A DNA stretch of 64,000 bases from Bispira polyomma. Lineage: Eukaryota. Under the pieces are notes generated by a model. That model had not been told where the DNA came from. It saw only the letters and a program-made list of their open reading frames with translations, and did not search any database. Position numbers and translations under genes: made by a program. The stretch covers positions 36,022,001 through 36,086,000 of the forward strand of contig OZ287758.1 in assembly GCA_965649765.1 (NCBI GenBank), read 5' to 3'. Numbering within the stretch: position 1 is the first letter of the stretch; each line of letters starts with the position of its first letter. Positions 436 through 64,000 of the stretch are shown here, one piece after another.

Positions 436-2018
436 CGCCCTTTTCAATCGCAAAAGAAAGCTATTGCTGGGAACAGATAATACTTCCGGCATTCAATAAT
501 GGCCTCGCCTATATATTTTATAAATGGGGAAGTCAGTGCTGTACTAACAATTTCCTGGTGTGAGGAAAATGATTGAAAATAAAATTATATTTTGGGAATG
601 TCGACAAAGTAGGGGAAGTAAGCATTATATTTTTTAAGGAAGTCCATGCACTAAATTTTATGGCACTTTGGTGGAAATATGCCTATATCAACTGAATGCC
701 CCTCTTTTGTCACAACCTACTGAATTAGAGATATTTTTATAATGTAAAAAAAAATCTAGCTATTAAGCTATAACATCAGGCAAACTAAATTAGATGTTTA
801 TGTGTTGATTTAGTCATTTTTACAACTGCAAAAAGCTCTTTATTGCACGTGGTGTTTTTTGTAACAATAAAATAAAAAGGTGAATATGTGTTTTTTCTCC
901 TAAAAAATTAACTAGAATTACTTTCTGTAAACAAGAAATAGAGGATTTTTTTTGTTAAAGGTTCCATTCTAATAGTAGTAAGTACATTACAGTCATCCAA
1001 ATTAAGTAGAATGGGAGTTAATGTTTTTTGTCTCTTCTTTTGTTTAAAGAAGCCATTCCATGAGATATAAAGCAGCAGGCACATAGCCCTACCAAATGTA
1101 GGCGATTAGATTAATGCACTTTACTATTCCATAGGCACAGTGCTGAGATGTTAATGCCTTCTGTTTCAAGGAAATTCAAGAGGTGTTGTGGAAATCATCC
1201 TGGGACTAGTTAATCAGCTACAGGCTAGTTACTGTAGTTACTAGCTTATGTAGGACACTTCTAGGTTGTTGTATAGGATGTGTGTCAGGTTCCAGTTTTT
1301 AGGACTTTTTTATCAGGCCTTATGTTGTTTTCATTTTTAAAGGGGCTCCGCAATTTAAAAGGGCACTGCCATCTTAGAAATAATATGCAAGGCTTTCATG
1401 GATTGGTTTAAAAACAAATGACCTGTCCAAAACTGAGGCGTGTCAGATTTGCCTGAGTATATAGTAGCCATTTCAACGTTAGTGTTCACACTTGTGCGAC
1501 TGTGTCTTTTTAAAAAAGACAACTCTTGTTGGGTGCTGTATGCCGATGACCAAATCCAACTGATGACGTACATATATACAAAATGTATCTCCCAGAAATG
1601 GATCATGAAGGGTTTTGATAAGGGGATGACATTGTTTACATTAAAATCTTCTTGGTTGGTGGGTATATGGATACACTAAAGTGAACGAGGCCGTTATGGC
1701 TCAGCGTCAGATGTCAGTTTCCCCTGGCTGGTCAATAAAATAAAACACTCATAAAGCCTACATTGGGCGCCAAAAAATTCCCACCAAAAGTTCTAGCCAG
1801 TGTGGGCTTGCTGGCCCCCTACCTTCATTCAGGAATTGGTTGTCAAAGAGGAAACAACGAACAATTTTAAAGGCTCAAAAGAGACTATCAAACAGTTTAT
1901 ATACAGATTTTAGTTTTGGTTTTATGTTAACATATTTTAGTGGCCTTTTACATGCTAACTCATAGTGAAATACTAAGCTGGATATAAAACATAAAGACGT
2001 CAGGAGTTATTAGTTCTG

Positions 2019-3279
2019 ATGGGATCAAAACACCACAATATACGAAGCAGCACATGGGAGAGGTGTTCAAAGTGCGAAACTAGCCACAGACCACCCATAG
2101 GGGACGCTTGTGAGAGAGCGACGACAGCGCACACATTATCTTCAGCTGGATCTGAGGTGCAAGGTCAGATGCAGACAGAAAAGACAGCCGCGCAACAGCA
2201 GGTAGCAGGGGGTTCACAACAAGTCAAGTTTAACTCAACAGTGGGCGACGAAACACACTCTCAAATGCAGTCGAATTCTAAGAAAGGGAAATCACAGGGT
2301 AAGAAGCGTGTGGTTAATGTAGACGTTTTGGCCAAGCTTGATTTAGTGCTAGATAAAGTCACACAATTGGAAGATAGATTTAGTCGACAGGAAGAAAGGA
2401 ATAACAGTGCATTGTCTATTTCATCGCGTCCGTCGGCACACAGCTCGCCCAAGGCTCATAGATCCACTCGTGTACGCACAGACGACCACTGTGAAAGCAG
2501 CCAAATTACCCACACTGGACTTCTTGAGGGGTGACTCAGTGATCCAGGATGAGGTGGACCGCAGGATTAGACAGTACCAAGAAACATCGAGGGAGGACAT
2601 TTCAGGTATTGTGATTAATAAAAAGTCAATTAAATCAGGCAGACTTAGAGTCGGAGATCAAAAAGTTAAGGTGACTGTGGCATGGCCACATGAGAACTGT
2701 ATTTTAAACGAACAAATGAAAATGCCGACTTACAAGGAACTTACTATGTGCCAGTGGGTTCAAGGGTTTTCTAAATGCGTACTTCAGGAAACTGAAGAAG
2801 AAATTAGGAAAAACATGTTACAGTACCAATACGTTCTTATGCAGGACGCCATGGATCTTTCATGGCCAACTGCTAAATGGGCCCATGCAGCGGTTTTAAC
2901 CGAAATTGAGAGGGGTAACCTAAGTTGGGATAACCCAGGGGACGTTGATAGAGTAAGGCAGCGTTTCACTCAAAGAGTCCTTAAAAGTTCAGACTCAGGT
3001 GGTTACAGTTCACAAACAACATATTACAACGGCCAAAGTAGAGACAAAGATCAGTCAATTCAGGGGAAAGTAACAGTTTGTCAAAAGTATGCGAAAGGCA
3101 TATGCAAATTTGAATCAGATCATTTTGAAGGGGGGAAAATGCAGAAGCATTCTTGTGGTTTTTGCTACAAGGTGGTGCATAAGAACTTTGACCACCCAGA
3201 GAATAAATGTAACCGTAAATTAAAGGAAGGGAATGGAAAAAACCACAGCAGTGGTGACAGGGCTGAACAGAGAGTTTAG
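2019..3279 (+). pseudogene. gag: Gag-like protein of the YR retrotransposon (one frameshift near 2480-2495)
   Basis: ORF 2019-2534 has an N-terminal CxxC-x3-H...C knuckle and a coiled coil. It continues in ORF 2407-3279, which ends in a Cys/His finger (CQKYAKGIC...H...HSCGFC...HPENKC) of the kind seen in Ngaro-type Gag. Confidence 0.8.
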
Positions 3280-5840
3280 CAACAGTGACGTCACTCCCAG
3301 TTCCAATAACATTTCTAGACAAGAAACATGTTTAGAACAAAAAACACATGGGTCAGTAACCAGGTTACAACAAAGTCTTTCTGGGGTAGTAAGCACCTTC
3401 AGATATGTAATTGTTTTTGGTGTACAAAAAGTTCACAATATAGTCTTACCAAAAGAAAAGGAACTGGGGGGGGGGGGGGGAGGAAAAACCCCCTCTCGTG
3501 CTAAGAGAAGCACAACATTGGGCCACTGAGAGTGAAGGTCATATTAAAATGAACAGTGTGCCTATCACACAACAAAGTTTAATTAGTATAGGCAATAGCC
3601 AAGTTAGTAGTGTCCATATTACAGATGTTAAGGATAATAGTGTCACTTTGGTTAGCACGTATCAGTAATGCCAGTATAGCGAGATTGATAGTAGTAGTAA
3701 CTACACATGTTACACGCCACAGGGAGAGCAAAGTTTAACAGGTGAAAGTTATGTCAATGACGAGTTGACAATGAGGCAAAATATTACGTTTGTCACATGT
3801 ATAGGGGGAACACCCCACTTAGAGAGTTTCATTAGTCATGCTAGCTCTGAAAGGTTAAGTTTAATCACAACAACAAATGCAGCAATGGAGTACACATTTG
3901 ATACCACAGCCAGTCATTCTTTTAATGTAAATAGGGACATACAGTAGGGACAATTTGGCTGGGATATCAACACCTGCCAATTAGAACATTCAAGGGCGGG
4001 ACACAGGTCAAGCTATTGTTCTTATATAGAAGGGGAAGGCATAAGCCACAACAGTGGGGGCAAATGGAAAGAATGGCTAAGGGGCTTTATTCTAATAGAC
4101 CTCCCCCTAGTGAGGCAAATTACAATCAAAACACAAGCACTCGAGCTACAGTCTAGTGATATGGTACAGTGGGTTAGTGAAGCACACAACATAACAAAAC
4201 AAACTGGCCTTCCAAATTACAAAGGGGCTAGACTCCCCGTGCCTTCACAATTAAATATCACAGCCTGGCGTACATACTTAAAAGAATATGACTTGGCTGT
4301 GGTCTGTGATTACCTCCAGTATGGTTTTCCGTTGTCATTAGACTATACTCAATTCGAATACAACACAAATGTGGAAAATCACCCCTCAGCATTAAGATTC
4401 CCCAAGGAAGTTAGTGAATACTTTGCTACAGAGGTAGGCCATAAGGCTATGGTGGGCCCAATGCAAAAAAGTCCTTTCCAACAATTACATGTTTCACCCT
4501 TAATGTCAAGGTCTAAGCCGAATGGAACAAGGTGGATAATTGTAGACCTTTCGTGGCCACATGGTAATAGTGTAAATTCATGTATTCCCCGTAATACTTT
4601 TGATGATATAGAATTCCAACTCAAATATCCCACAATAGATAACATAGTACAAAAAATAGCCTTGCTAGGGCCTCAATGTTTATTATATAAAATTGATTTG
4701 CAACGAGCATATAGAAACCTGAGGACAGACCCTTTTGACTATTCAGTTTTAGGATTAAGTTGGAATAAGGAACTGTACGTTGACGTCAGTGTTCCCTTTG
4801 GCCTGGCCTCGGGCGCATGTGCGTGCCAAATGGCCACCGACGAAGTAACCTACCTCATGCATAGTTATAATTACTGGGTTTGTTCGTATCTGGATGATTG
4901 CATCGGAGTTACGCCTCCTGGAAAGGCTAACCTAGCTTTCGTTACATTGCGCAATCTGATAGAGAAATTAGGGCTCCCTATAAACCAAGACAAGGTAGAC
5001 CCCCCAACAGAAGAGCTTACATGCTTAGGCATTAGCATAAACGCGCGAACAGGGCGGCTCACAATACCAGAAAAGAAATTGCTAGAGGTTAAACAATTAT
5101 GCCTTCAATGGAAAACAAAATGCATAGGCACACGGAGGGGCCTGCAACAATTGTTAGGAAAACTATTTATACATAGATGTGTCAAACCGGCAAGGCTTTT
5201 TGTGAATAGAATTTTGGGTGTGTTGGGGAGAACCCCCTCCCCCCCTCCCCCCCCCCCTCCCCCCCCCCCTCCCCCATACGACAATACCCCTAGGCGAAGG
5301 CTTTCATAAAGACGTTAATTGGTTTTGCGAGTTTTTGCAAGATTACAATGGGGTCACTGAAATGCATCAGATGGAGGGTAATATTAAGGAAGTGTATATT
5401 GACACGTCACTTAATGGTTTGGGGGCCTACTGGGGAGGACATGTTTATACAGTAGACATCCCTGATTACTATAAGGACACGCTAATAATAGTTCACTTTG
5501 AAATGGTAAACGTCATAGTCGCTTTTCATATGTGGGGGAAAGAATGGGCCAACACAAAAGTGTGTGTTCACTGTGACAACTTAGCAGTTGTCCATATACT
5601 TAACAGGTTCAAATGCAGAGATGTCTTTTTAAATGCATGTGCCAGGACGTTATGGCTTTTGCAGGAAAAATGTAACGTTGAAATTAGAATCATATTAGAG
5701 GCGTGAAGAACACCTATGCAGATATCTTGTCCAGATGGCCTTATTATGAGAACACAGACAAAGCTGAAGTTAAATATTTAAAAACGTGTACTTGGCATGA
5801 AGTAAAACCAGCATGGCTGAACCCTAACTATGATATTTAA
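3233..5840 (+). pseudogene. pol: Pol: reverse transcriptase + RNase H (disrupted)
   Basis: RT motifs YGFPL, NHPSA, IVDLS, KIDLQRAYR, PFG and YLDD in ORF 4110-5309. RNase H motifs YIDTS, HFEM and HCDN in 5218-5706, then HIRGVKNTYADILSRW after a frameshift, ending at TAA 5838-5840. Disruptions: frameshifts at the G-run 3466-3480, the C-run 5233-5275 and ~5685; in-frame stops at 3666-3668 and 3945-3947. Confidence 0.9.
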
Positions 5841-5850
5841 ATATTGTAGG
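5824..5850 (+). promoter_or_regulatory. Putative branch point and 3' splice site feeding the YR frame
   Basis: CTAAC at 5824-5828, then AT-rich ...tttaaatattgtag|G with AG at 5848-5849, 9 nt after the RNase H stop. Confidence 0.6.
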
Positions 5851-6903
5851 TCATCCACTTATACAGGGATTACTTCGAGATGTGAATGCACGGGTGGCCT
5901 CAGGATTTCGGCCTCGCACCTCAGCGGCTTACCAAGGGAAATTCAGGCTCTATTTAGCATTCCTAGCACACCTAAGGATAAGCTCTCCCTCTGAGTTAAA
6001 ATCTATACTATTATTTTTAGAGTTTTTAGCACAACAAGGTTACAAAGCAGGTACACTCCTGGGATACACCTCAGTGCTTAAGCATTTTTTCCAGTTATAT
6101 AACTTGCCCACAGTAGCACTACAACACAAAAAAGTAGCACTCGTGCTGAAATCGGTTTCACACAATGCTCCGCTGACATACAAGATAAAAGGGGTCTTCC
6201 CACCAGCTAAGCTACAACAGTTGATAGAGTTAGCTCAAGGGTTTCCAGGGGCTCACCACTACAAGACAATTATATTACTGGGGTTTTTCGGCTTCTTCAG
6301 GTTAGCCACATTAGTTTCACCCACAGCAGCAAAATTTCAGGCATCCCAGTTTCCTACACAAAACGACGTAATTTTGGGGGCCCCAGGGGCACATATAATA
6401 ACAAAATGTGCTAAGAATATGCAGGTCTCGGGTCACCTGCAGGTGGTGCAAGTCCCAGCGCTGACAAGATCCCCACTATGCCCAGTTAAGGCATTGCTCC
6501 ATATTGTACCTGAAAAAACCTCAAAGTGCATATCACTATTCCAGTTTGAACAACAATGGCGTAACACTATAATAACAGCATATCAGGTGCGCAAGGTCCT
6601 CGCCTCGCTGGTACAAAAATTAACCTTCCCCCTGCTGAGTTTGGATTTCACGCTTTGCGATGCTCAGGAGCGTCATGGGCATTCGACCACAATGTAGACC
6701 TCCAGCACATAAAGGTACACGGCGGCTGGCGCTCTGACGCCATTTGGAGATACTTAGTCAAAACACCCAAAGCAGCAGGGTCGGTAGCCACAACCTTCAC
6801 AAAGCACCTAAATAACGAAAAATCAGACATACCCACTACAACAATTTGGGTTTGGCCTTTTTTAACTTTTACATACATATACATACATAACATTTACAAG
6901 TAG
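5850..6903 (+). pseudogene. Tyrosine recombinase (YR/integrase), one frameshift near 6620; no upstream ATG in frame
   Basis: Catalytic motifs FFGFFR (R), then after the frameshift FGFHALRCSGA (HxxR) and HGGWRSDAIWRY (W...Y). The frame is open from 5834 with no ATG before the domain start. Confidence 0.9.
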
Positions 6904-14489: not shown

Positions 14490-14952
14490 CTCACAGACGT
14501 CACTCCTTATCTGAAAACAAACTACACTGACTGCCCATTCACTCTATAATTGGGTTCAAAATCCATGTTACCACTTTTAAATCTGTAGTCACTCTACAGC
14601 CCTCCTACCTCGCTTTCCTTCTCTCTTTCAGTAACCTAAACAGAGGCTACTGACTCTCTGATTCTTTGGTCAGACCCACCAGGATTCGGAATCCAGAGCT
14701 TTCTCTACTGCAGTTTCCTTGGTATGGAATAGTCTCCCTGTTGACCTCAGATCAGTACATACACTCATCGGTTTAGGAAAAAGCTCAAAACCTATCTTTT
14801 TAACCTTGCCTACCCACCTTATTTTCCATCCAGTACACCCCCACATCTTTTCTTACAACCTTGCTATGTCCATGGAGTTTACGATTGGATCACTGATTCT
14901 ACTGTTGTACTTTCGATGATGCCTAGCATCAACTAAGCATAATAATAATAAT
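14490..14952 (+). mobile_element. L2/CR1-group LINE 3' fragment
   Basis: Decayed ORF2 C-terminus (LH.LPI...FKI...P.YL; RAFS.A...WNSLP..LR), 3' UTR and (AAT)n tail. Same family at 31955, 47068, 55612 and 58790. Confidence 0.8.
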
Positions 14953-48500: not shown

Positions 48501-51500
48501 CCTTGATGTAGATACTATACTATACATTTTTGGCCTTTTTTTTATAATATCCCACCTCAATATTTTTTTTTTTTTAATTAACATGGTAATAATAATATTC
48601 TGCCACAATATTCAGTTTGTCAGTAACATGATGTTCAATACTTATCTCTTCTTTTTCACCTTGTAGGCAGACCCAGAGAATGACAACCAGATGCTGATAC
48701 CACAGGCCAGATTCTGTGAGTCACAACACATGTGGTACTTTACTGGAATACTCTACGCTATCAAAGGTTTGTTTAATGTTCATGTACAGATGTCATCCAA
48801 TTGAGTCATAATGTAAATAAATATATCTCCCAGTGTTGTTGATGATTTGGCCCTCCACTTGCATCTCTACTGTTCTCCAACCCTACTATAATCCGACCAT
48901 ATTGTGAGTCTGCCTTAAAGATCGGATACTAAAGGTTTTACAGTCAGGTAACTGTATCAAATATATATAGTTCCGGACTATCAAAAGAATATATGATCCT
49001 TTATTTGTATAACTCTATGCTATCAAAGGTTAGTACCAGTAATTAAATGTGTCAATTATAACTAATTACGCACTATCGAAAGAATGTATTATCAGTTTTG
49101 GTAAAACTCTACCATATCCAAGGTTTGGACCAGTAACTGTGTCAATAATAACTGGTTCCGCACTATCAAAATAATGTATGATCAGGTACTTGACAATGTA
49201 TAACTCTACGCTATCAAAGGTTTGTACAAGTAATTGTGTCAATTATAACTAGTTCCGCACTATCGAAGGAATGTATTATCAGTTATTTGTAAAACTCTAC
49301 GCTATCAAAGGTCTTTACCCAACAGTTATGGGGTATTGATGTCAACAGGGGCTGTCCACTTTGTATGGACCAGTTCTTAGAAACTGTGAGGCCATAATTG
49401 TACAAATATATAGGTATAGGTGTACAACCTCATGCTCTCATTTTACCCAACGGCTGTGGTGTTTGGAAATCTCTGATGCTATTTTATTATTATTAATATT
49501 TCATTTATTTTCACCTGGTTATACCATGTATACAATATTTATTTAGTAATACTGCCAACTAAGTGGCGTACATGAAACCAGTAGGCAACTTTTGACCTAC
49601 CGGACATTTGGGATATAGTTGTTACAAATTTATATTTAAAAGTTAACCTATGATATTTGATACTAACAAGTTAGAGTGAATGATGGATAAAATAGTTATA
49701 GAAATGTACATAACATGTATCAGTGATTGTCTTATATTCCAATAGTTCACAATACATTGTCCAAAGCCTTTAATTATGCTAGTTTGTGTCATTATAAATT
49801 CCCATGTATCTTGGACAGGCATACTAGTAAATGATTGTTCTAAGGTTATTGCTTGGTCAAATAAAATACTCCTATTATTGTCCTACACATGACATTACAA
49901 TTAAATACAAAATGTTCCTTATCCTATTTCGAATCTGTACCAGAGATCTTGCAGCTCCTATTTAACAATTGTGTGTTGGTAAACCGACCTGCTAATTTTA
50001 TTTAAATAGATCTACACTATTACATGTGTGACCAATAAGTTGTATGTTAGAGTACATTATTAAAAGTTTGTACCACAGCAGAATATTTATTACCTGTTAT
50101 CTATATATTGGTGATTTTATGAACTTATCTCCACTCTCTAACTTATGTCTTCTTCTTGGTTTATACATAAATTCCCCTCTATTTCATAAACCATCATCCG
50201 AATAATATCTGGCTTTTCTAACATGTTCGGATAATGGAGGTTCTATCCATTTTTTTTATCTAAATTAGCTCCTTGATACTGTGGCCTCCTTGACAGAGTT
50301 ATGCACGCCACTAAGTCCACATGGGTTTTCACCGTTGTGACACCACTACATGTATTTTCTGGCTTTACCTCCATCACTCTGTGTAAGGTGGCACAGTGCT
50401 TATAATAGCTTGCTTCAAAATCACTGGCTTCTTTCTCACCAATATGTTTGTCAGGTACTTGTCACAGGTCGGTGGTTTACAGGGTTACAGTGGCTTTGAG
50501 CACTGGTTTCTTCCACTTTTAAATATGGCTGTCGTGGCATGACTTGAAATTTTGAATGTGATGTAAAACCCAACTAAATTCAAGTCCATATTCATCACCC
50601 TGTATTTACACTTCAGGCCTGTTGCTGGTATTTGGTGCCTTTCTAGCATATGAGACCAGAAAAGTTACAGTCCCTGCACTCAATGACTCCAAGTTTATAG
50701 GTAGGTGCCTTGGAGTCATATATCTATCAAATATCTTCAGCCTATTTTAATGTTTGAAAGAATAAAATCCACATCTATAAATTTCCTTATCAATAGAAGT
50801 TAGACTATAGATTTTAGTGTACAAACATGTTTTTTAGATTTTAGATGGTTTTCTACATTAAACCCTGAGTAAACATCAATGTAATCTATCACATGTCTTA
50901 GTTTGTACTGCCATACATTAAATTATGAATGCCTGTGTAAATCAATTTCAAATGTTGTGACGAAACCATTCCAACATGACAAGCTTGTGTGTTCCTGATT
51001 CTGCTTGGTTCAAAAGTATGGCATAAAATCTACGATCAACACATAAGAATGACTAAGACAGTTTCTCCTCCATACTCATTTTAATGCCAAGTTGAATAGT
51101 TCCTGTAGTGACACGATGTAATTTCAAATACAGCACCCTTTTAGGTATTACTGTTTAATCGGTCACACTAGAATAAAAAAATTCCATTCCAAATCATGTG
51201 TATGTAAATGTTCGCTTTTGCCGTTCTGTGTCTCAGACTCTGGTAAAATGACCAGAAACGGAGACTTCACTTAAATCTTTTATTCTTAAATTTTTGTCTT
51301 GGCCAATTTGCTTGGCTGAAAATATTGTTTCAAAGAATCTGATTAGCAGAAACTAAAAAACATGTTAAAAATTACATTCTAGGAATATTTGTGAATACTG
51401 CCTCTGGTATATCCCTGACTTATCATGGGATATTCCTTCTATACATTGTAACTACGATGTAGCTGTGTAATGATTGGTTTCAAACTGACAGCTTTCTTCT

Positions 51501-53708
51501 ATTTCAGGTCTGAGTGTGTACAATGTGTTTGTACTGTGTCTGGTGGGAGTGCCCGTGTCTTTAATGATGAAAGAAAACATCAATGCAAGCTTTGCCTTAA
51601 TCTCCCTCTTCATCCTCTTTGCAACTACACTAACTATATGCCTTGTATTCATTCCAAAAGTAAGTTCAGGGAAGTTTTTTAATAAATTAAGGAGGTTCGT
51701 ATCTGTTTATTCTGTGTTTTTTTAGCAGTAATTCTAACCCCTGTCTTGTGTCTGTTGGTTTTTTATTATATATTTGGTTGTCACTTGGATGACACAAAAA
51801 CTTGTAAATTGGTTTACATGAAACTTTTGGGGACATGGGCCGAGGAGAAATTCATGTATTTTTGCAGCAGATCTGTTTGGTTTTTAATATTTCATAATAT
51901 GGTATTAAAATTTATATTGAGCACATATAGGTTACCTTGGATTAAGTACATATTCTAAGCAGAAAAGCGAGGGATCAGCAATATTACTGGCATAACAATA
52001 AATCAAAATAATTATCCCCATCAAATGAGTTTTGATGTCAGACACAGGACTAATGTATTATGATAAAAGTAAAACTCATACATTTCTAAGACCTAATTAA
52101 TTGTGATAATAGAACTTTGTGTGCAATTACCATTGAGTGATTTTGGCCCCCCTACCAAAATGTTACAACCAAAAGTTTTCTTTGCTTTATATTGGTAAGG
52201 ATTTTGAAGTATTAATAAAGCTCATACAGTATTATGATATAGGTTATTTGTTGTGTGCACAAGTACTATGAGTCATGTATTATTTTTAAGATTATGCACA
52301 GAAACCACGCGCCACATGCAGGCCAGATGTGGAACAAGACAGTGGATGCCAACTCTCCGAACAATCGGCAGAAACTATCAGCAGTGTGTATGTATGAGGA
52401 CCAGGAGTACAAGACAGTGAAAGATGAGAATGCCAGACTGAAGGTGTCACTAGAACAGGTGAGGGACATGTGTATAAACAGGTGGGAGACAGGTGTATAA
52501 ACTGGCTAAATATGTCTCTAGAACAGGTGAGAAACAGGTGTAAATACAGGTGTGAGAAAAAGGTGTAAAAAAAAGTGTATATATAGATGTGGGAAATAGG
52601 TGTGTAAGCAGGCTAAATATGTCACTGGAACTGGTTAGAAACAAGTGGGAAAAAACAGGTGTGTATAAAAAGGTATCAAACCGTTGTGGAAACATGTGTA
52701 AGGCATGTGGGTCAACAAATGTGAGACAGGTGTATAAATAGGTGTGACACAGGTGTGAAATAGGTGCTACAAACAGGTGTGAGAAAGGTGTGCATGAATC
52801 ATGACCAGGATTATATGAGAGTAAAAGAGGAGAATACCAGGCTAAAGCTGGCACTGAAGCAGGTGAGTTTAGTTTAGTTTTGAGTTTAGCTTCACTTTCA
52901 ATACATTGTGGGCTATAGTATGACAACCAGATTTAACGGTGACGGAAACAAGTACTGTAAACCACCCGCCTATGGCAAATTTCTGACAAACTTTCCCACA
53001 AGAAGGAACGGACTGGATTCTAACCTACATTGAGTAGAGGCCAGTGATCTAACCGCTATACAAATATGCTATATATTTGATTACAACATTTTCCTCCTGT
53101 CTATCCATGTCTAGTATCACCTGTACTAACCAGTTCTTATTACCTCCGTCAGTGAAAAGCCTATCTAAAGTAAACCGAACCTTAACCCTTTTAACAGTTA
53201 TGTTGTCAACAGGAACTTTTATCCCCAGAACAGCTGACACCCCCAAAATAGTATCCTATTTTCCTTCAGTTCTTTGCAGTAGAAAATTGTTAGAATAGCA
53301 GACTTTCCCGTTTAAGAATGACGGAAGCAGTCTGTGGTGTGTGTTTTAGTGACTTCAGCTATCTGTAACCTATTACCTGAGAACTTCCTTCAGTTTTCTC
53401 CCTGTTGCGAAAGGGTTAATCATACTTACCTCTTTTGTTCATCCATTTGTTTTCAGTGTCGAAGACGTCTTCACGAGCTGGACAGTTGTAATGGTGGCCT
53501 GCTGCCATCACCAATGACCATCTCTGACCAGATGGGGTCAATAAGTGAGCCCAACACTCCCGTGGTGTGCCGCAGCCTGCTTGCCCAGGGGTCAGTGGAG
53601 GAAGATTTCCCACTGACCACTACTTACACCACACTGACCACCAGACTACATAGCTCAGCGTCTGAAGAACAGCTGAACTGTGTGAATACAGACGGTCCCT
53701 CTCTCTGA
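21381..53708 (+). CDS. GABA-B receptor-like class C GPCR (Venus flytrap + 7TM + C-terminal coiled coil); 17 exons visible, 5' exon(s) not found
   Basis: 17 GT-AG exons join in phase to 2355 nt (784 aa + stop). Motifs: GCS...[74 protein letters not shown]. Exact orthology not determinable by eye. Confidence 0.93.
22214..22495. repeat. Foldback with perfect 25-bp inverted termini
   Basis: ggaactagacctatccgtggtcacc 22214-22238 is the exact inverse of 22471-22495. Degenerate inverted similarity extends ~60 bp further inward. Confidence 0.85.
23530..23660 (+). mobile_element. SINE family A, 5'-truncated
   Basis: ggtttcttccaccattaaatctggcc...gctgttgcaagcgacataaaatccaactaaattc. Confidence 0.75.
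24998..25440 (+). repeat. Interspersed repeat (aaatgacctat...gtaaccattcattttaatagag...aattcaaatatg), two internal units
   Basis: Related copies at ~13400-13550 (-), 18280-18500 (-), 20540-20710 (-) and 55338-55500 (+). Confidence 0.65.
26497..26646 (+). mobile_element. MITE-like element with imperfect TIRs
   Basis: ggggctctattcacaaa ... tttgtgaataccagccct. Confidence 0.65.
29359..29871. mobile_element. MITE-like element with ~30-bp imperfect TIRs and subterminal repeats
   Basis: tgtgatggtacaaagtccaatttggtagaat is the approximate inverse of attctaccagattgtactttctaccatgaca. AT-rich interior. Confidence 0.7.
29973..30270 (+). mobile_element. piggyBac-type MITE (TTAA target, CC..GGG termini)
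   Basis: ttaa|ccttttcaacc ... ggtcgaaaggg|ttaa; interior shared with 37016-37326 and 53182-53419. Confidence 0.75.
31955..32230 (+). mobile_element. L2/CR1-group LINE 3' fragment
   Basis: Same 3' end and tail as 14490-14952. Confidence 0.78.
32646..32819 (+). CDS. GABA-B-like exon [12 protein letters not shown]...ALFKL
   Basis: ttccag| ... |gtaagg, 174 nt, phase 0/0. Confidence 0.92.
33464..33565 (+). CDS. GABA-B-like exon TTDDF...IANLK
   Basis: ttttag| ... |gtaggc, 102 nt, phase 0/0. Confidence 0.88.
34146..34260 (+). CDS. GABA-B-like exon [13 protein letters not shown]...YVWIIT
   Basis: ttctag| ... |gttagt, 115 nt, phase 0/1. Confidence 0.92.
37016..37326 (+). mobile_element. piggyBac-type MITE copy
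   Basis: ttaa|ctcctttgaccc ... gggatcgaaaggg|ttaa; same interior (aataggaaattgttagtatag). Confidence 0.75.
38647..38795 (+). CDS. GABA-B-like exon GFYSPAWW...ISGK
   Basis: ttgtag| ... |gtgagg, 149 nt, phase 1/0. Confidence 0.9.
39880..40024 (+). CDS. GABA-B-like exon LYSQF...[10 protein letters not shown]...TNR
   Basis: tacacag| ... |gtaaag, 145 nt, phase 0/1. Confidence 0.9.
41237..41334 (+). CDS. GABA-B-like exon [11 protein letters not shown]...FEGVS
   Basis: ttgtag| ... |gtaagt, 98 nt, phase 1/0. Confidence 0.92.
41385..41790 (+). mobile_element. L2-like LINE 3' fragment (second subfamily)
   Basis: Decayed RSF..AAPKSWN...FETSSSPI-type ORF2 end; starts 50 bp after a donor site. Confidence 0.55.
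44953..45109 (+). CDS. GABA-B-like exon GPVMYD...IEQLQG...VIWI
   Basis: ctccag| ... |gtgaga, 157 nt, phase 0/1. Confidence 0.92.
45143..45370 (+). mobile_element. SINE family A, near full length
   Basis: ggctgtggtggcttagtggtcagaagtgcctgcttc head; tail gttgaaagcgatgtataacccaaccaa. Confidence 0.8.
45730..45901 (+). mobile_element. SINE family A, 5'-truncated
   Basis: Shared body and tail ...gacctaagctgttgaaagcaacatacaaacccaactaaattc. Confidence 0.78.
46017..46167 (+). CDS. GABA-B-like exon, linker + TM1
   Basis: cactag| ... |gtgagt, 151 nt, phase 1/2; GDPPPD...[11 protein letters not shown]. Confidence 0.92.
46862..46994 (+). CDS. GABA-B-like exon, ICL1 + TM2
   Basis: ttccag| ... |gtaaga, 133 nt, phase 2/0; [11 protein letters not shown]...IMCK. 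Confidence 0.93.
47438..47545 (+). CDS. GABA-B-like exon, TM3 + ICL2
   Basis: ttccag| ... |gtgagt, 108 nt; [15 protein letters not shown]. Confidence 0.93.
48146..48274 (+). CDS. GABA-B-like exon, TM4
   Basis: ttgtag| ... |gtatgt, 129 nt; IIKDYQL...WEFIDPL. Confidence 0.92.
48667..48766 (+). CDS. GABA-B-like exon, ECL2 + start of TM5
   Basis: ttgtag| ... |gtttgt, 100 nt, phase 0/1; FCES...GILYAIK. Confidence 0.9.
48920..49320 (+). repeat. Minisatellite (~94-bp unit) containing copies of the preceding exon 3' end and donor
   Basis: actctacgctatcaaaggtttgt at 48750-48772 is identical at 49203-49225; variants at ~49012, 49106 and 49294. Confidence 0.88.
50385..50582 (+). mobile_element. SINE family A
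   Basis: Head ggtggcacagtg, body gtttgtcaggtacttg, tail gtgatgtaaaacccaactaaattc. Confidence 0.78.
50617..50700 (+). CDS. GABA-B-like exon, TM5 + ICL3
   Basis: cttcag| ... |gtaggt, 84 nt, phase 1/1; [20 protein letters not shown]. Confidence 0.93.
51508..51659 (+). CDS. GABA-B-like exon, TM6 + TM7
   Basis: tttcag| ... |gtaagt, 152 nt, phase 1/0; SVYNV...LVFIPK. Confidence 0.93.
52291..52458 (+). CDS. GABA-B-like exon, cytoplasmic tail with coiled coil
   Basis: tttaag| ... |gtgagg, 168 nt; ...[14 protein letters not shown]. Confidence 0.82.
52459..52790 (+). repeat. Degenerate CAGGTG-rich tandem array derived from the exon donor
   Basis: Many (c)aggtg(t/a) units, plus longer copies of gtcactagaacaggtgag at ~52514 and ~52621. 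Confidence 0.8.
52863..53060 (-). mobile_element. SINE family A (antisense)
   Basis: Reverse complement of the family tail, body and head; the tail abuts a donor-like CAG|GTGAGT. Confidence 0.75.
53182..53419 (+). mobile_element. piggyBac-type MITE copy, ending 37 bp before the last-exon acceptor
   Basis: ttaa|cccttttaacag ... ttgcgaaaggg|ttaa; same interior. Confidence 0.72.
53457..53708 (+). CDS. GABA-B-like terminal exon CRRRLHEL...DGPSL*
   Basis: Strong acceptor ttgttttcag|, phase 0; continues the coiled coil; TGA at 53706-53708. Confidence 0.75.
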   Translation, partial: CRRRLHELDSCNGGLLPSPMTISDQMGSISEPNTPVVCRSLLAQGSVEEDFPLTTTYTTLTTRLHSSASEEQLNCVNTDGPSL

Positions 53709-54490
53709 TAAGACTGGCCACCAGATTACAGAGATTAGTGTCTGAAGAACAGCTGAACTGTGGGAACACAGACGGTCCCTCTCTCTGATAGGACTTGGTG
53801 TAAAACAGTGGAATCTCGGTTATATGAACAGCATCTGAGACCCCTGAACTGAGAAAATACAGATGTCCCTCTCTCTGATAGGACTGACCACTACTTACAC
53901 CACCCTGACCACCAGATTACATAGCTCAGTGTCTGAGCAACAGCTGAACTGTGTGAATGCAGAGGGTCCTTCCCTTTGATAAGACTTGTGTTGTAGTACA
54001 GTGAAAACTCCATTGCATAAACTATTTCTGGGACACCTTAACTGTAAAAACACATCCTTCCCTGTATCCTTCCCTTTGATAAGACTGACCACCAGATTAC
54101 ACAGCTCATTGTCTGAGGAACAGCTGAACTGTGGGAAGTTTGTGTACCACAGTGGAAAATCGGTTATATGAACTATATCTGGGACAGCTCAACTGTGGAA
54201 ATACAGATATCCCTCCCTATGATAAGATGTAAAGTAAAAAAAAATATTTGTAGCTACACAATAACAGGACGGGAAAACTGTCCCTGCACATAGGTTAGGC
54301 TATTGGCTATTTGTCACTTTGATGATACACAAGTGTATTATATTATTACAGTAAGGAAACACCTAAACTGTGAAAACACAGACCCCCCATGATAGGACAC
54401 AGAGGGTCCCTCACTTTGACAGGACTTGTTGGTGTACCATGGAAACTCCATTATATGAACCACGTCTTGTCCACCTGAACTGTGGGAAGA
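53612..54490 (+). repeat. Tandem repeat (~80-100-bp units, two variants) whose first unit includes the last ~31 codons and stop of the receptor
   Basis: ccaccagattacatagctc..gtctga.gaacagctgaactgtg..aatacaga.ggtccctctctctgata recurs at ~53612, 53715, 53883 and 54084; variants at ~53795, 53985, 54140 and 54425. Confidence 0.88.
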
Positions 54491-55611: not shown

Positions 55612-56036
55612 CAATTTTCAAGGCTGTAGTCACTCTACAGCCCTCCTACCCCACTTACCTTCTCTCTTTCAGTAACCTAATGAGAGGCAGTACACTCTCT
55701 GTTTCTTCAGTTAGACCCACTAGGAAGTTGGGATCAAAAGCTTTCTTCATTGCAGCTTCCTTATATGGAACAGTCTACCTGTTGAGCTCAGATCAGTAGA
55801 TACCACACTCATTGGTTTTAGGAAAAGCTCAAAACCTATCTTTTTAACCTTACCTACCCCCCACCCCACCCCCTACCAACTACCCACCTTACTTTCCCTC
55901 CAGTACCCCTCCCCCCACACACATCTTTCCTTACGACCTTGCTATGCCCATGGACTTCACGATTGGATTACTAATTCTGCTGTTGCGCTTTAGAAGATGC
56001 CTAGCCTCAATAAAACGTGTTAAAAATGCATAATAA
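55612..56036 (+). mobile_element. L2/CR1-group LINE 3' fragment (within the probable 3' UTR)
   Basis: Same family 3' end as 14490-14952. Confidence 0.8.
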
Positions 56037-56758: not shown

Positions 56759-58238
56759 TGTATGTTTAAACATGAACAATATCCACATTTTTATGAAAGG
56801 TGGTTTCCTATTGATTAGGGTCTGGTAATCATAATGTCTCTGGTTCAACTCTCAGATAGGGAGTTAGTCGGGTGATCATAAAATGCCCGTTCGACACTCG
56901 GTTGGAGAGTTTGTCTGGTGATTAGGAGGTCCCCAGGTACAGAGGGTACCAACCCTGGACATGATGTCACAACTGTTACAACAAATAACGATGCACAATT
57001 TAGTTATATTTTTGTCTTATTGATACATCAAAGGTTAAACTGTTGATACAGTATTGGTAAGTTGAGCTTTGATACATTGGGCTGTTGAGATACAACATCT
57101 TGTTTAGAAACCAAAAAATGCTAAAGTTATCAGCTTAAAGTAACTCTCGTCACCTTATTAGTATGAGTTTAAGGTCAGTCAATTGGTCTGTGTGAACACA
57201 GTTTGACCCTGAATCCAAGGTAACTGTCAAATTTGACCATTGCATTCCATTTTAAGTTTACAACTTAAAAACACTCTAAACACATAAATTTGGCACAATA
57301 CTGCTTAACTTTCTCAAACCATTCCTTTTTCCTTCAATTTTCAAAAATGTATCCACACTTGGAGAGCTGTATGTAAGATTGTGATTTATAAATCATGCAA
57401 TTGGTTATACCTTCTTAACTTTGTATTTAGTAACAATGGTAACAAAATGTATGCGTGTAGATAATAATTACACAATAATCTTAAAGATGTAGCACAATTT
57501 GCAAGGTTTCCACAATCAGGTTCGTATTTCGGTGTTGTGTCCATAACACATCGTCAAGTCCACACGGACAGGAAATGTTGCATTAAACACAACCACCTGA
57601 GTTCATCTGCATACTTAAATACACACACATACTTCTCTCTACGCCTTGGTGTCCAACTGTCTAAGATAACACAATAATCTTATAAAACCTCTCCATTGTC
57701 TAAATATGTTGTATTGTTTTTGAATAATGGTTCATAAAAATAGAAAATGCATTTAAGCATCTGCCAACCAGAAATCATAAATATGGCAGGGAATTACAGA
57801 TTGGGATTATCCACAAAAAAAATCAAATATTCAGATGATAAAAGGTCAGACAATAGGGTAGACTGAGTTTTCTGTTCTCGCTGATGCTTTTATTAACTGA
57901 CGACACAATAAGGGACAGAGTAGTTACCGTCAGCAAAAGTCAACAAATCTGACATGGCAGTTGTCTTTAACAGGAAATATAGGAAATATTTTCAAATATT
58001 GATATTTAATTAATCAAATATTTTTAGGTTTGTCATAAGTTATAATATTGTGCATGGCTATTGTATTATGAGTATTTGGTTTATGGCTAATAGCTCTGCT
58101 CTTCACCATGTGTACCATCGGTAAAAATAAAAGCATGGTCGAGGACAGAAAACTCTGTTTACTAATAGGCAGGCTCTCACATTTTCCTCACAGGAGCACA
58201 TAAAATCCAGGGTGTCAGTGCATGTTGAAGTCCATGGC

Positions 58239-58473
58239 TTAGAAGTGATATACAAGTGTCACAGAGAGCAGAGAGTAAGACATACTTGCTGCCATCACCG
58301 CAGTGGCTCCAGCCTGGGAGTTGGCTTGACTACCTGAGTTATCATCATCTATGTCTGCAGCAGTGGGAGCTGGTGTACACGGTTCTGCCTTCCGCCACCA
58401 ATTGTCGTACAGGGCCTGAACAGTACCATTGTCCAGGAGTATCTCAATGGCTTGGCTGAATTCTTCTGTGTAT
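58239..58473 (-). CDS. iGluR-LBD protein terminal exon: end of S2, spacer and GPI-signal-like tail
   Basis: cctgtag| on -, phase 2; YTEEFSQAIEILLDNGTVQALYDNWWRKAEPC-TPAPTAADIDDDNSGSQANSQAGA-TAVMAASMSYSLLSVTLVYHF*. Confidence 0.88.
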
Positions 58474-59981
58474 CTACAGGATAGAAAAAAGTTTATACCA
58501 AGATCATATTATATAGGCCACGTTTCTCAAAACAAGCCCATATTTTTTCCATAGAATGGCCATATTCTGTATAAATTCCTCCAAAAAAATTGCTATTTTA
58601 TTGAATGTTGATGTTTTGTATGTAAACACACCTTATACATATATCATACTTATTTCTCCAAGAGTCTTCCTAGCCTACTTATGAGACTAAAGTTGACAGT
58701 GATTACAAAGTACAGTATTATTGGAATCAAAAATTGACTATTAAGTAGATCAAGGGTGATTGCATAAGGCGGATAAACTCTTGACTTCATCAATGCATTG
58801 GATATGCCCATTTACTCTCGAATTTTGTTCAAAATTCACGTTAAGGCTGTAGTCAATCAACAGCCCTCGTACCTTGCTTCCCTTCTCTCCTTCAGTAGCA
58901 GTAAGAGAGGCAACAGACTTCGGTCAGACCCATCAGGAAGGCAGGATCCAGAGCTTTCTCTATTGCAGCTGCCTTGTTATGGAACAGTCTCCCAGTTGAC
59001 TTCAGATCAGTTGATTCACTCATCAGTTTTACGAAAAAGCTTAAAACCTATCTTTTTAACCTTGCCTACCCACCTTAGCTTTCCTCATGCATGCTCCCAC
59101 ATGTTTTCTTATGACTTTGCTATGCCCATGAACTTTACGATTGGATCAATGATTCTGCTGTTGAGCTTTAGAAGATACCTAGCATCAATAAAGCACGTTA
59201 AAAATTCATAATAATAATATTTGGCTTTCCACTATAGAGGTCTTGGGGCAAGAATTGTAGCCATCATGTAATAAAACCAAGACTAACTAGGTATCTGAGT
59301 TAGCTGGAAAATTAACTTCTGTTAGAAAAAAAGACAATGGTCAAGAATGCATAATGAAAGGTTTATATACCACTTAAGACTATTCTATGACAGAAGACTC
59401 TCGTCTATGTGTTGGTGTTTCTGGTATTAAACCTTAAGCATGCATGGTTTTATTATTTTTGACTACTTTCTTTGGAGTACTTACTTGTATTGCACCTTAA
59501 TTATATGTCATTACATCTTAATTAAATCTTACACTAGATTTTAGAAGCGGCTTTTTTCAAGCACTAATAACCAGTAAGACTCTTTAATCCCTACCTGCTG
59601 CCCTTCTCCAGAGCTATGGAGTAGTTTTTGTAGTTCATGAAGGTAAATGTCATGAGGTCACAGTTCTGTACTGCCAGATACTCCAGGGTGTCACTACCAC
59701 CAATAAAGGCATAGTCATCAGTCAGGACCTTCTCCAAACCTAGAGGAAAAGTTTGAGTTTGAATAGAATTTAGTTAGGTTTTACGTCGCTTTCGACAGCT
59801 TAGGTCATATCATGGTCAGGTTTAACAGTGGAAGAAACCACTGCTGAAGCACTGTAAACCAGCAACCTATGGCAAGAACCTGACAAACTTTCCCACATAA
59901 AGCAACTAACAAGATTTGAACCCACATTGGTGCTTTTAACCGCATATATGTCCACTGTTCCTGGGGCCAGAGTGGCCTTGC

Positions 59982-60029
<48 letters not shown>

Positions 60030-63000
60030 TGTATTGTAGCCTATGATCAGTTAAATGTTCATGTGACTCATACACTGCAATTGATGTTCTTTGTCGTTAT
60101 AATGAGTGTACCTACTCCAAGTTAAGACACCTTTACTGATGCCATAAATATGGCCTTTATATACCGTTGATTGCATTACACAGCAGGGGGCGACACGACA
60201 TATCACAACAGTATTATTCACATCAAACATTACATAACAATACCTAATCTATATCAAATATAACGATTTTTATCTCAAAAGATGTGCTACATATTACATA
60301 TGGGGTAAAATAACGGCAATGTTTCTTTAAAACATTATCCAGTTTAATGTCTGTGTCATGGTGTAATCTAACTGCCAATTAAAGAATAAGCACAAGTCAC
60401 ATATGCTCATATGTTATCCTTAGATTAATAAACGAGATATGATTCGAACAGAATAGTTTTGTATTATAAGTACCAAATATAACCATTGCTCAAGATCCGT
60501 TATCAAAATCATGGGTAAGTGACACCAAATATAAATGTGATTTATATCTAAACAGCAAAGCTCATCATAGGAAGAAAAGGGTAATACTTGAATACAGAGG
60601 TTTTATAGGTAAGAACAATGCACACTAAAATTAAAATTGTCTATCAAACCAATGGCATCAAGGAAATTGTCCCAATGTATTTTAGCCCCACCCTTCACAG
60701 AATCCTGTATTCGGCTGTGGGTAATTTCCGTTCTATTACACTCACCTTGACTGGTTGTGGCAACCAACACGAACGGCCCCTGTGTGGTCATGTATTTATC
60801 CATTCTTCTCAGAAGTGGTTTCTTACTGTTGGCGATTACCTTCCTCAGCACATGTGACTTGTCATAGCTCCCATAATTTACCTAGATTGCAAAAATACAT
60901 TGTGGTAACAGTAAACATATTGAATAGTGGTGCATGGCATATCCAGTTTAGCACTAAAAAAAATTGATATCGAAATGTGGACCTCATAAATATGATCAAT
61001 ATTTCAAAATCGATGTATGATGCCATAATGGGATATATCTCAGTTTATAACGTGTCATGTGATGTAGCCTAAACCAATGAAATGGTTAGATACTGAGGTG
61101 TCGTAAGTAAACTTTTGACATGAAGTTATAGAGTAACAGATGGTAACATGAAGTACCAAACAATGTTATTATTATTTTTAAAGTATATATCAGCCTCTAA
61201 GATGGTCCATTCTCTGAAAGGGATAGTCCTACAACATAGGCAATGGTGTGTTCACATCTTGTCCAAGGATTTTATCCCACCAAATAGACCTTGCCGCATT
61301 AGTACGAGTCAAAGCTGAGACCTTCTGATCAACAGACAAACTCTCTCAACTGGGAGTCAGACTGGGAGCCGAACATATAACATACATTGTAAACAACATT
61401 ACTTTGAGAAGCAGGTACTTGCCCCTCAAAAATGTAGCAATACCACTATATGGAGAAGCCTACTTTGTATACCTTTGTACTGTCCATGAGTTCTTCAATA
61501 CTAGATATGTTCAGCTCCTTCCGCACCAGAACTGCCATTGAAATCTGTAGGAAGGGTATAGTAAAGTCCACAGCCTCCTCTCGTCTATTGGTCACGGCTA
61601 GCGGTGCCATGGCAGCATCCGCTTTCTGTAAATAAAAGAAAAAATACTGTTAGTGACGCCATGGCTGCATCCGCTTTCTGTAAATAAATAAAAAACACTT
61701 TTTTTAAAATATCTCTTAGGCATCTCTTGGTGTACCATCAAAGGATGCACTTTCGGTAGAATATGAAGACAATTTGTGTCAAATCTTTTGGTCACTGCTA
61801 GTTTATCATGGCACCTTTTTTTGGAAAATTAAAAAGGCGGATTGTGTTATATGTCTTGGTCGTATGTCATGGCAGCATCCATGTTCTGTAGTTTGAAAAG
61901 ACAATTTTGGAAATATCCCTTCGTCACTGCTAGGGGTGCTATCGCAGCTTCCGCTTTCTGGAGATTAAAAATGGAAAGTTTGTGTCATATGCCTTGGACA
62001 CTGTTTGCGGCTAATGGCTTCATCCCCTTTCTCTGTATTAAAAAGACATTGAAGTTATTGAAACATTGCTTTATCAAAAATCGAGATATTAAAGAAAATG
62101 GCGAGAGAACTCAGACAAAGTTATGGCTTAAAAATGAATTATTATTTTATGATCATCCCTGATATTGGGAAAGAAAAATTACCAATACGGCTGACAATGT
62201 CACAGGTTTGAAAGAATAAAGCATATTGCAGTACCGAAATGACCTGTTTCAATGGGCCTTTGGTTCAGTAACACTGACTACCTTCCCTTGTATTGCCTGA
62301 ATTACAACTTACCCCAGTAAAGACTTCCCCTATCATTCCAGACCAGCTACCATTTTCATACAGTCTACCATACATGTTGTCCCTCACTGGCTGGAATCTG
62401 CAAAGTAGCACAGTATTGATCTGAAGCATTAGTAGAAGCCCAATTTATTTAATATTTGTTCTTATCCAGTAATTCCTCGAGAAGAGATGGTCTGGAATTT
62501 ATTATTGCTTTAAACAACAAATAACCACTTGTTTCAAATGGGCAAATTCAAATATATAATTTTTGGCCAGCCACCGGAGTAATTATTATTATAATCAGAC
62601 TTTTTGTTTATTTTTGACAATATCAAATTCCTAGGCCCAAGATTAAATGATAATTAGAATCTAAAAATCATAATTGGTGAACGAAAAAAAGATAAACAGC
62701 AATGGAGGAAATGTATCGGTAAACAAATATGTTTTTAATCAGAGATGGAAGGAATGCAAAGCAGGAGTTGTCCTGATCAAATTAGGTAAACTATTCAACA
62801 GGATCCATATTTAAAGTACAGATTCAAATACGTTGGCAGTCTTAAATGCACAATGTAGATTGAAAGGTTTACGACATGTTGGTTGATGCCTGGTGGTGCT
62901 GGGATGTGTAATTTGAAAATCCAGTCAAACTCGAGTCCAGCTGAGACTAATTGTATTGTATTATATGTTTTCAACATGTTTTATTAATTCACATAATTTT

Positions 63001-63417
63001 CTAAAGCGTAACAACCAAAATCAATGAAACAATAATTTCTGGATCATCATCAGTAGGCAATGGCGTGTTCACATCTTGCCACATCACGTTTCCCCATGAA
63101 TGAACCTACCAGCATCAGCAGGAGTTGAACCATTCACCAGACATACTTCTTTATCAGATGAGACCACGAGAGACCACAAAAATTTTGTCTGGGTTCGTAA
63201 ATCTGAGTGTACACCACTCTAGCACAGAAAATATATTTATAAACCTTTTTATTTCCCATCTATGTGCATCTATGTAAATGCATCTTATTATTTCTTACAT
63301 GTACTTGTCATACGGTTGTTCCATCACATTGTTCATTTCCTCCCACAGCTCTACCATGAACCCAGTAAACCGGAACAATCCGGTTGGGGATTGCTCTAAC
63401 ATCACGAAAGGCTCAAT
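58239..63417 (-). CDS. Pore-less iGluR-derived ligand-binding-domain protein (S1 fused to S2) with GPI-anchor-like C-terminus; 6 exons visible, 5' end outside the window
   Basis: Six GT-AG exons join in phase (873 nt; 290 aa + stop) with no internal stop. iGluR LBD motifs: EPFVM, F.GF.VEL, D.MYG, WSGMIGEV, KADAAMAPL..T..REEAVDFT.PF, ISSIEEL, V.YG, YAFI, NCDL, YSIAL.KGS, WW....C. No M1-M3 and no SYTANLAAF. Confidence 0.88.
58790..59218 (+). mobile_element. L2/CR1-group LINE 3' fragment
   Basis: HW.MPIYSRILFKIHV...PSYL remnant, family 3' UTR and (AAT)n tail; explains ORF 58798-59211. Confidence 0.8.
59595..59739 (-). CDS. iGluR-LBD protein exon (S2) GLEKVLTDDYAFIGGS...NCDL...YSIALEKGS
   Basis: ttcctctag| ... 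|gtaggg on -, 145 nt, phase 1/2. Confidence 0.9.
59750..59980 (-). mobile_element. SINE family A (sense to the iGluR-like gene), tail ending ~10 bp before an acceptor
   Basis: Reverse complement of the family sequence (gctgtcgaaagcgacgtaaaacctaactaaattc). Confidence 0.78.
59983..60027. repeat. (GT)n microsatellite
   Basis: Direct reading. Confidence 0.95.
60746..60881 (-). CDS. iGluR-LBD protein exon (S2) VNYGSYDKSHV...LVATTSQ
   Basis: caatctag| ... |gtgagt on -, 136 nt, phase 0/1. Aligns to the S2 segment IAYGT...SK...KMW.YM...FV.TT.EG. Confidence 0.88.
61473..61625 (-). CDS. iGluR-LBD protein exon spanning the S1-S2 junction: KADAAMAPL...VLVRK-ELN-ISSIEELMDSTK
   Basis: tttacag| ... aag|gtatac on -, 153 nt, phase 0/0. 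Confidence 0.88.
61590..62045 (-). repeat. Degenerate tandem array of the acceptor and 5' end of exon 61473-61625
   Basis: gccatggcagcatccgctttctgtaaataa (61606-61635) recurs at ~61658, with weaker copies at ~61735, 61800, 61866, 61937 and 62010. Confidence 0.82.
62313..62397 (-). CDS. iGluR-LBD protein exon (S1) FQPVRDNMYG...WSGMIGEVFTG
   Basis: tttgcag| ... |gtaagt on -, 85 nt, phase 2/0. Confidence 0.92.
63299..63417 (-). CDS. iGluR-LBD protein exon (S1) IEPFVML...PYDKY
   Basis: ctgtttcag| ... |gtaaga on -, 119 nt, phase 0/2. Confidence 0.88.
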
Positions 63418-63840
63418 CTGAAACAGAAACACCCACCATAAACCAATAAACTGAAACAATCTGGTTGGAGATTGCTCAAACATCCCAAAAGGCTCACTCG
63501 GAAACACATTTACTGTGTGATTAAAACACATTGCACTTTATTGCTATATCGATTGCACTCTTATCCAGTCAGATTTTTTTTTGGCTTTTGGTGGTTTGGA
63601 ATTACCAGGTTATTTCCGGGCTTTCTGAAAATAAGCCCATGCAATTATATATTTGAAAATTCACTATGCCTCAAATATCCCACAGGCTTAGATTTGGTTT
63701 AAAAAAGATTGCTCGCACATAACTGTACTTAATCTTTATCTAGAGAGTTTTCTCATTTACTTATCATTTTTTTCATTCCTATACACGTGCACAACTAATG
63801 TCCACCGTTGACTTTTAAAGCTGATAAAATGTTTCAATTT

Positions 63841-64000
63841 TACTGCCAAAGGTAAACGTGGGTTACTGCTAAATGTAAGTATGGGTCACTGCCAAATGGA
63901 AGTATGGGTCACTGCTAAATGTAAGTATAGGTCACTGCTTAATGTAAGTGTGGATCACTGCTAAATGTAAGTATAGGTCACTGTTAAATGTAAGTGTGGG
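63841..64000. repeat. Minisatellite, 23-bp unit (tgggtcactgctaaatgtaagta), about 7 copies, runs off the window
   Basis: actgc recurs at 63842, 63865, 63888 and onward. Confidence 0.92.

Follow-up and report, generated by a model that had tools for sequence, protein, structure and literature searches.

The minus strand of our window (the whole stretch of DNA analysed, 64 000 nt of Bispira polyomma contig OZ287758.1) carries a gene for a ligand-binding domain (LBD) of the ionotropic glutamate receptor (iGluR) type, in which segment S1 runs directly into segment S2. The block of M1, pore loop and M3 that separates the two in receptors (PF00060, with its SYTANLAAF motif) is absent from the gene, whose product, as judged from the sequence, is a channel-less iGluR derivative and not an ion channel. 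Our preferred reading, held with moderate confidence, is that this S1S2 domain is a non-conducting protein predicted to bind a small ligand and probably tethered to the outer cell surface by a GPI anchor. A first-pass annotation had dwelt on the GPI-like tail and the loss of M4; it omitted the weightier fact, that M1-M3 are missing as well.

Gene model

Six minus-strand exons with AG acceptors and GT donors join into a single open frame of 290 codons. The first (63299..63417) begins S1 at an xxPFV motif in phase 0 and matches PF10613 positions 11-47 (E 0.04). The second (62313..62397) continues S1 with Tyr450 (62372-62370) and the G.WSGMIGE motif (positions 50-75, E 5e-4). The third (61473..61625) holds the end of S1 fused to the start of S2, with Pro478, Ala480 and Arg485 (61583-61581), a junction near 61518 and no M1-M3 (positions 78-114, E 8e-9); these three exons match PF10613 in order. 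S2 occupies the fourth exon (60746..60881), with Ser-His-Val at pocket positions 653-655 (Ser at 60857-60855), and the fifth (59595..59739), with Gly-Gly at 704-705 (705 at 59698-59696) and the first cysteine of the S2 pair (59662-59660). The last exon (58473-58239) comprises the S2 end, a polar linker, a hydrophobic tail and the stop TAA; its S2 part (58377..58473) includes the final helices, the WW motif and the terminal Cys (58379-58377). Both the PF10613 S1 and the S2 of the LBD are thus present. The model is collinear with the Helobdella robusta protein XP_009011281.1 (32% identity over 236 aa, E 2e-41), and its exons have 45-49% GC, whereas the stretch of flanking intron that was measured has 29% (the window is ~36% GC).

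DNA contigs from three runs show 0 differing letters across 58000-58833; the runs come from one study, possibly the window's own source, and the agreement speaks to the absence of an assembly error at the stop. The first AATAAA 3′ of the stop, a candidate polyadenylation signal, is at 57889..57894, within one arm of a repeated element. This element is MITE-like, a 37-nt inverted repeat (84%; 57858-57894 and 58126-58162) flanking a high-copy stretch.

Whatever exon or exons encode the first beta strand, and a signal peptide if there is one, lie upstream, outside the window. Sixteen candidate donors in the window's remaining 580 bases gave a best score of 0.3 as the end of an upstream exon, where 12-22 is expected (6 of 12 reference proteins were usable for this scoring). 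A 34-nt candidate exon at 63820-63787 was rejected at -4.3 versus 12-22 for real exons, as was a start at the in-frame ATG 63531, which reads through a degenerate duplicate of an exon start. Such duplicates copy the acceptor and opening codons of two exons at 76-84% identity and are found on the minus strand at 63440-63506, 61646-61695 and 61926-61975, in introns, a short way upstream of the real exons; the ones ahead of exon 61625 retain an AG and are possible decoy acceptors.

Word-indexed searches with single exons found no relatives (47 and 1 candidates). An ESM Atlas search with the last exon returned short clusters and one weak NMDA-like lead (0.83).

Missing pore

In the third exon the end of S1 continues straight into S2. 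All 51 of its residues align by phmmer, gapless, to the S1S2 crystal constructs of GluK3 and GluK2, in which an engineered Gly-Thr link stands in place of M1-M3. Because the S1/S2 junction lies inside one exon, no skipped exon could bring the pore back. Scanning both strands for motifs revealed nothing of M1-M3 or M4 in a receptor-like context anywhere in the window; the scan returned a lone YIANL and eleven short matches of M2 type, and the M4 pattern was absent.

The internal donor pointed out by the first-pass annotation, cag/GTAGTC with an intron start at 58333, is real and agrees with the consensus at 6 of 9 positions, against 6-9 of 9 in the five real donors; a second candidate, caa/GTATGT at 58285, agrees at 7 of 9. 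With these donors and a 5′ end outside the window, the six exons might be the C-terminal part of a longer protein, whose amino-terminal domain or further modules would be encoded upstream of the window, or an internal donor might lead to a downstream M4 exon. We give this little probability. The Owenia and tardigrade relatives have short N-termini ahead of S1, none of 19 downstream acceptors (those giving at least 19 aa ahead of a convergent GPCR gene) yields an M4-like segment from either donor (best Kyte-Doolittle mean 1.64, M4 motif absent), and, with M1-M3 lacking, an M4 exon alone would not make the protein a channel again.

Relatives with the same layout

A phmmer search with the junction exon gave 29 matches, of which 14 were fetched. 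Nine of these have the same S1-to-S2 junction, and three exon-level ORFs with the same start motif (P0022, P0026 and P0030) run into M1; a repeated fragment (P0007) and a bacterial-type protein (P0020) were set aside. The P0005 exon, from another assembly, is 72% identical over 46 aa and ends at the same place. In both P0005 and P0014 the junction exon seems to end at the same codon as in our gene, so that they may mark the sub-lineage to which our gene belongs; P0052, P0054 and P0062, unlike them, run on without introns past the junction exon.

A profile search gave 26 matches, nine of them without PF00060 and five of these complete at the C-terminus: Helobdella robusta XP_009011281.1, Owenia fusiformis CAH1773235.1, P0052, P0054 and P0062 (P0057, also without PF00060, was dropped as a fish delta-type fragment). 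All five stop 26-69 residues past the last Cys, after a hydrophobic or semi-hydrophobic tail, and within 1-4 residues of their most hydrophobic window. In P0052, P0054 and P0062 a single ORF spans everything from the junction through S2 and the tail to the stop, which makes the layout independent of exon joining. A tardigrade protein, Paramacrobiotus XP_055338421.1, has the junction, and its record ends within S2. In the tardigrade protein and the five complete relatives Pfam finds only PF10613 and PF00497, and an ESM Atlas cluster of 147 members lists the same two families and no PF00060, with Annelida the commonest phylum among the 26 members that have a record.

The Owenia protein has, by eye, a signal-peptide-like stretch before S1, and its tail is textbook-like. 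A predicted AlphaFold model of this relative, not of our gene's own protein, matches GluA2 and GluA4 LBD structures (E 6e-23, ~40% identity); it derives from a 12-row alignment, with mean pLDDT 68 and part of S1 below 50.

Another set of matches from Haliotis and others (P0046, P0048 and P0059/P0060/P0065) are ATD-less iGluRs with a signal peptide, a full membrane domain and a degenerate SYTANLAAF. They are possibly the nearest channel-bearing relatives of the channel-less proteins.

The C-terminal tail

The terminal S2 Cys is followed by 45 residues and then TAA (58241-58239). As the first-pass annotation had quoted it, a polar spacer leads to the run TAVMAASMSYSLLSVTLVYHF, which extends to the stop. 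The linker (58311..58376) places 21 polar residues between the Cys and the small-residue cluster AGA, whose first Ala (58313-58311) has 23 residues after it. The remaining segment (58239..58310, stop included) is uncharged and moderately hydrophobic, with no D/E/K/R in the last 20 residues and a best 19-residue mean of 1.53 on the Kyte-Doolittle (KD) scale. The stop comes right after it and leaves no cytoplasmic tail. All these details of the earlier description held up.

According to the NetGPI preprint (10.1101/838680), a GPI signal consists of a polar linker, an omega residue, an omega+2 residue that is mostly G/A/S, a spacer to omega+9 and then a hydrophobic stretch starting at about omega+10, with C/D/G/N/S as the conservative omega set. 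The tail's layout matches this five-part definition. The layout and the weak hydropathy, below that of 7 of 7 true M4 helices, speak for the GPI reading. The omega residue of the first-pass annotation, an Ala in AGA, does not belong to the conservative set. Nine candidate omega triplets are present, among them S-Q-A with 29 and with 25 residues after it and A-G-A with 23. Ser261 (58331-58329, placed by counting four codons back from Ser265; 29 residues after) appears to fit the published layout best, with Ser265 (58319-58317) and Ala267 (58313-58311) as alternatives; either serine would suit it at least as well as the Ala of AGA. Among 452 window ORFs (stop-to-stop, at least 45 aa) three, the tail included, passed four crude GPI rules, whose thresholds were set after seeing the tail, so that their specificity is overstated. 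At 0.84 the tail's small-residue fraction is the highest among all 452. By the same four rules our gene and Owenia pass 4, P0054 3, P0052 and P0062 2 and Helobdella 1.

The first-pass annotation held that the tail lacks the M4 consensus and that a GPI-like signal had replaced M4 and the cytoplasmic tail. GG.F and the cytoplasmic tail are indeed gone, but to call the tail unrelated to M4 would be wrong: it occupies the position and register of M4. With GluD2 it can be aligned almost without gaps from the terminal Cys onward into M4 (E 0.15); it also falls in M4 register in a multiple alignment that includes a mite kainate-like receptor, and keeps AG....AA and S.SL-like residues of M4. Its M4 match has an offset of 20 residues after the Cys; in full receptors the offset is 15-25. 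Against a profile built from seven M4s it scores 6.4, the highest among six channel-less tails; shuffling gives a p of 0.0065 for the whole tail, of 0.019 when done within halves and of 0.081 when confined to the last 24 residues. The register and shared residues (p 0.02-0.08) are no more than suggestive; they make 'replaced' doubtful, and the tail may be an M4 cut short.

Since it resembles M4, the tail could serve as a weak transmembrane anchor. The protein would then be single-pass, with about three residues inside and no GPI, its degenerate M4 still spanning the membrane. The alignment register, the profile score and the offset all speak for this. We nevertheless consider it unlikely, as true M4s score 13-34 (leave-one-out), reach KD 2.11-2.73 in 7 of 7 cases and each have 2-5 Lys/Arg behind them, whereas three residues, none of them Lys/Arg, come after the tail's hydrophobic window. 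The 45 residues are also very rich in small residues, and the tails of the five relatives show no significant M4 match (p 0.08-0.30).

The weakness of the same stretch, which is Ser/Thr-rich and in several relatives weaker still (KD 0.89-1.31), could instead indicate a secreted soluble binding protein, comparable to AChBP, with a tail too weak to anchor it or cleaved without lipid. Yet a terminal hydrophobic tail, needless in a purely soluble protein, is kept in 5 of 5 complete relatives, and we regard secretion as quite improbable. A GPI signal is the best reading of the tail, and the probable one from its layout; this signal may be derived from M4.

Ligand pocket

Pocket positions follow PMC6307864 and were mapped by motif; positions 653-655 of full receptors were read from the multiple alignment. 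Tyr450, Pro478, Ala480 (as in GluK2) and Arg485 are kept, while His654, Gly704 and Gly705 deviate. In that paper, Ser653 combined with a non-polar 655 goes with glycine binding, and position 705 serves the alpha-amino group. By these assignments Ser653/Val655 is a glycine-type signature, and Gly705 is without the acid that holds the alpha-amino group. With the carboxylate anchor Arg485 kept and the amino anchor lost, glutamate is unlikely as a ligand. Position 705 differs among the relatives too (Asp, Pro and Glu).

The altered pocket (His654, Gly704, Gly705) means that binding may have been lost. Together with the long branch of the gene in our tree and the duplicated exon-start fragments in its introns, Gly705 and His654 could point to a decaying copy or a non-binding pseudo-receptor, its frame open and its ligand binding gone. 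We see a slim chance of this, given the open frame of 290 codons with its five canonical introns, the presence of both cysteines of S2, the intact Tyr450, Pro478 and Arg485, and the 72% identical exon of P0005 with its shared end point.

Origin

Against animal iGluR LBDs the gene reaches 28-35% identity, against two bacterial binding proteins 21-23%. The tree splits the two bacterial rows from all animal rows (98/94). Both results, obtained with two such rows, leave a horizontal origin from a bacterial binding protein without support. The channel-less rows do not form one clade in the tree, although a single clade is not rejected (AU p 0.284, 8 rows vs 9). Four rows around Helobdella are a supported group, Owenia pairs weakly with Haliotis (81-87 bootstrap), and our gene has a long branch (1.2-1.3). 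A second tree was built without the long-branched rows, which were the two bacterial ones, P0009 and Mytilus; both trees sample the references thinly, without NMDA, epsilon or lambda. We suppose that an ancestral animal iGluR would have lost M1-M3, and that a stop close to the inner end of its M4 would have truncated the helix, which then drifted into a GPI signal.

Proposed function and known systems

In the preferred, GPI-tethered reading, an upstream exon would supply a signal peptide for ER entry, GPI transamidase would cut at Ser261, Ser265 or Ala267, 23-29 residues from the end, and the protein would be displayed on the outer leaflet. There the clamshell might close on a small carboxylate through Arg485, with a ligand that is probably not glutamate. 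Because the protein has no pore and no inner tail, it may buffer its ligand locally or present it to a partner receptor. The first-pass annotation adds that phospholipases could shed it.

To our knowledge, iGluR LBDs occur solely as channel parts or as laboratory-made S1S2 constructs. Mollusc AChBP is a ligand-gated channel's ligand-binding domain freed from its pore, but it is a soluble pentamer of the Cys-loop family with an unrelated fold. CEACAM is a precedent for a change from transmembrane to GPI anchoring; our literature search found no paper in support of it.

The closest likeness is to the engineered S1S2 cores of GluK2, GluK3 and GluA2 (PDB 3u92, 3g3j, 1ftj), which share the gapless S1-S2 link of the same two-residue length and, by the predicted model, the fold of the Owenia relative. 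Our gene differs from them in being natural and having introns, an extra 45-residue tail and a pocket altered at 654, 704 and 705. Animal iGluRs (AMPA, kainate and delta types and the ATD-less kainate-binding proteins) and IRs share the PF10613 S1, the S2 Cys pair, the WW motif and the exon start before an xADxAxAP motif; they have the M1, pore loop, M3 and cytoplasmic tail that our gene lacks, and M4 is in our gene at most a remnant. The Owenia, Helobdella and Paramacrobiotus proteins share the S1S2 fusion, and the first two also stop past a short tail, but identity to them is only 31-32% and position 705 differs. Bacterial solute-binding proteins of family 3 (PF00497) have an unbroken clamshell with the same hinge length (P0016), but no S2 Cys pair and no G.W.GMIGE motif.

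Surface clamshells without a membrane body are known in two other organisms. Two papers report SmGBP of Schistosoma mansoni to bind glutamate (PMC3206071) and EhVFT of Entamoeba histolytica to be GPI-anchored (PMC12965686); as described there, both differ from our protein in being class C GPCR-type Venus-flytrap domains and not iGluR S1S2. The literature that we searched, PMC12837371 included, contained no description of an iGluR S1S2 protein that is naturally channel-less or GPI-anchored, although sequence lists in supplements may hold some. One iGluR survey was a PF00060 HMM screen (PMC2924276), another dropped sequences without SYTANLAAF (PMC6307864) and a third removed those with fewer than two transmembrane helices (PMC12226733). 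Each filter excludes channel-less proteins, which may explain why they have escaped notice.

We tentatively suggest that these proteins could be an overlooked invertebrate class of GPI-tethered, sheddable, pore-less iGluR clamshells, analogous to AChBP, that might capture transmitters or chemical cues on the cell surface; in our gene the anchor would have been born from a stop at M4's inner end, and the rebuilt pocket would read a non-glutamate ligand. A natural surface-tethered S1S2, if true, would represent a novel means of buffering, presenting or sensing extracellular small molecules, and would supply a ready soluble domain to structural work and ligand screening. A tail that does derive from M4 would be a clear case of a transmembrane helix turned into a GPI signal.

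Rest of the window

A multi-exon class C GPCR gene, which we take to be GABA-B-like, lies on the plus strand at ~30500-53700, convergent with the S1S2 gene. Its 7tm_3 matches (50562-50747 and 51489-51722) are under the curated cut-off, and repeats occur within its 3′ region near 52400-52900 and 53600-54200. A functional link between the two genes was considered and set aside, with adjacency as its one support. A retrotransposon-like element with interrupted frames is on the plus strand at ~1995-6903; it has RT and tyrosine-recombinase-type ORFs (RVT_1 E 4e-8, integrase SAM-like E 5e-4) and is presumably DIRS-like. High-copy interspersed repeats, with very high contig depth, occur in the introns of the S1S2 gene at ~58800-59220, 59810-59930, 61237-61261 and 63044-63092, and an element similar to them is found near 55700-56030 and 14660-14920. 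A 23-nt tandem repeat and a (CA)n microsatellite are at 63819-63979 and 59976-60038.
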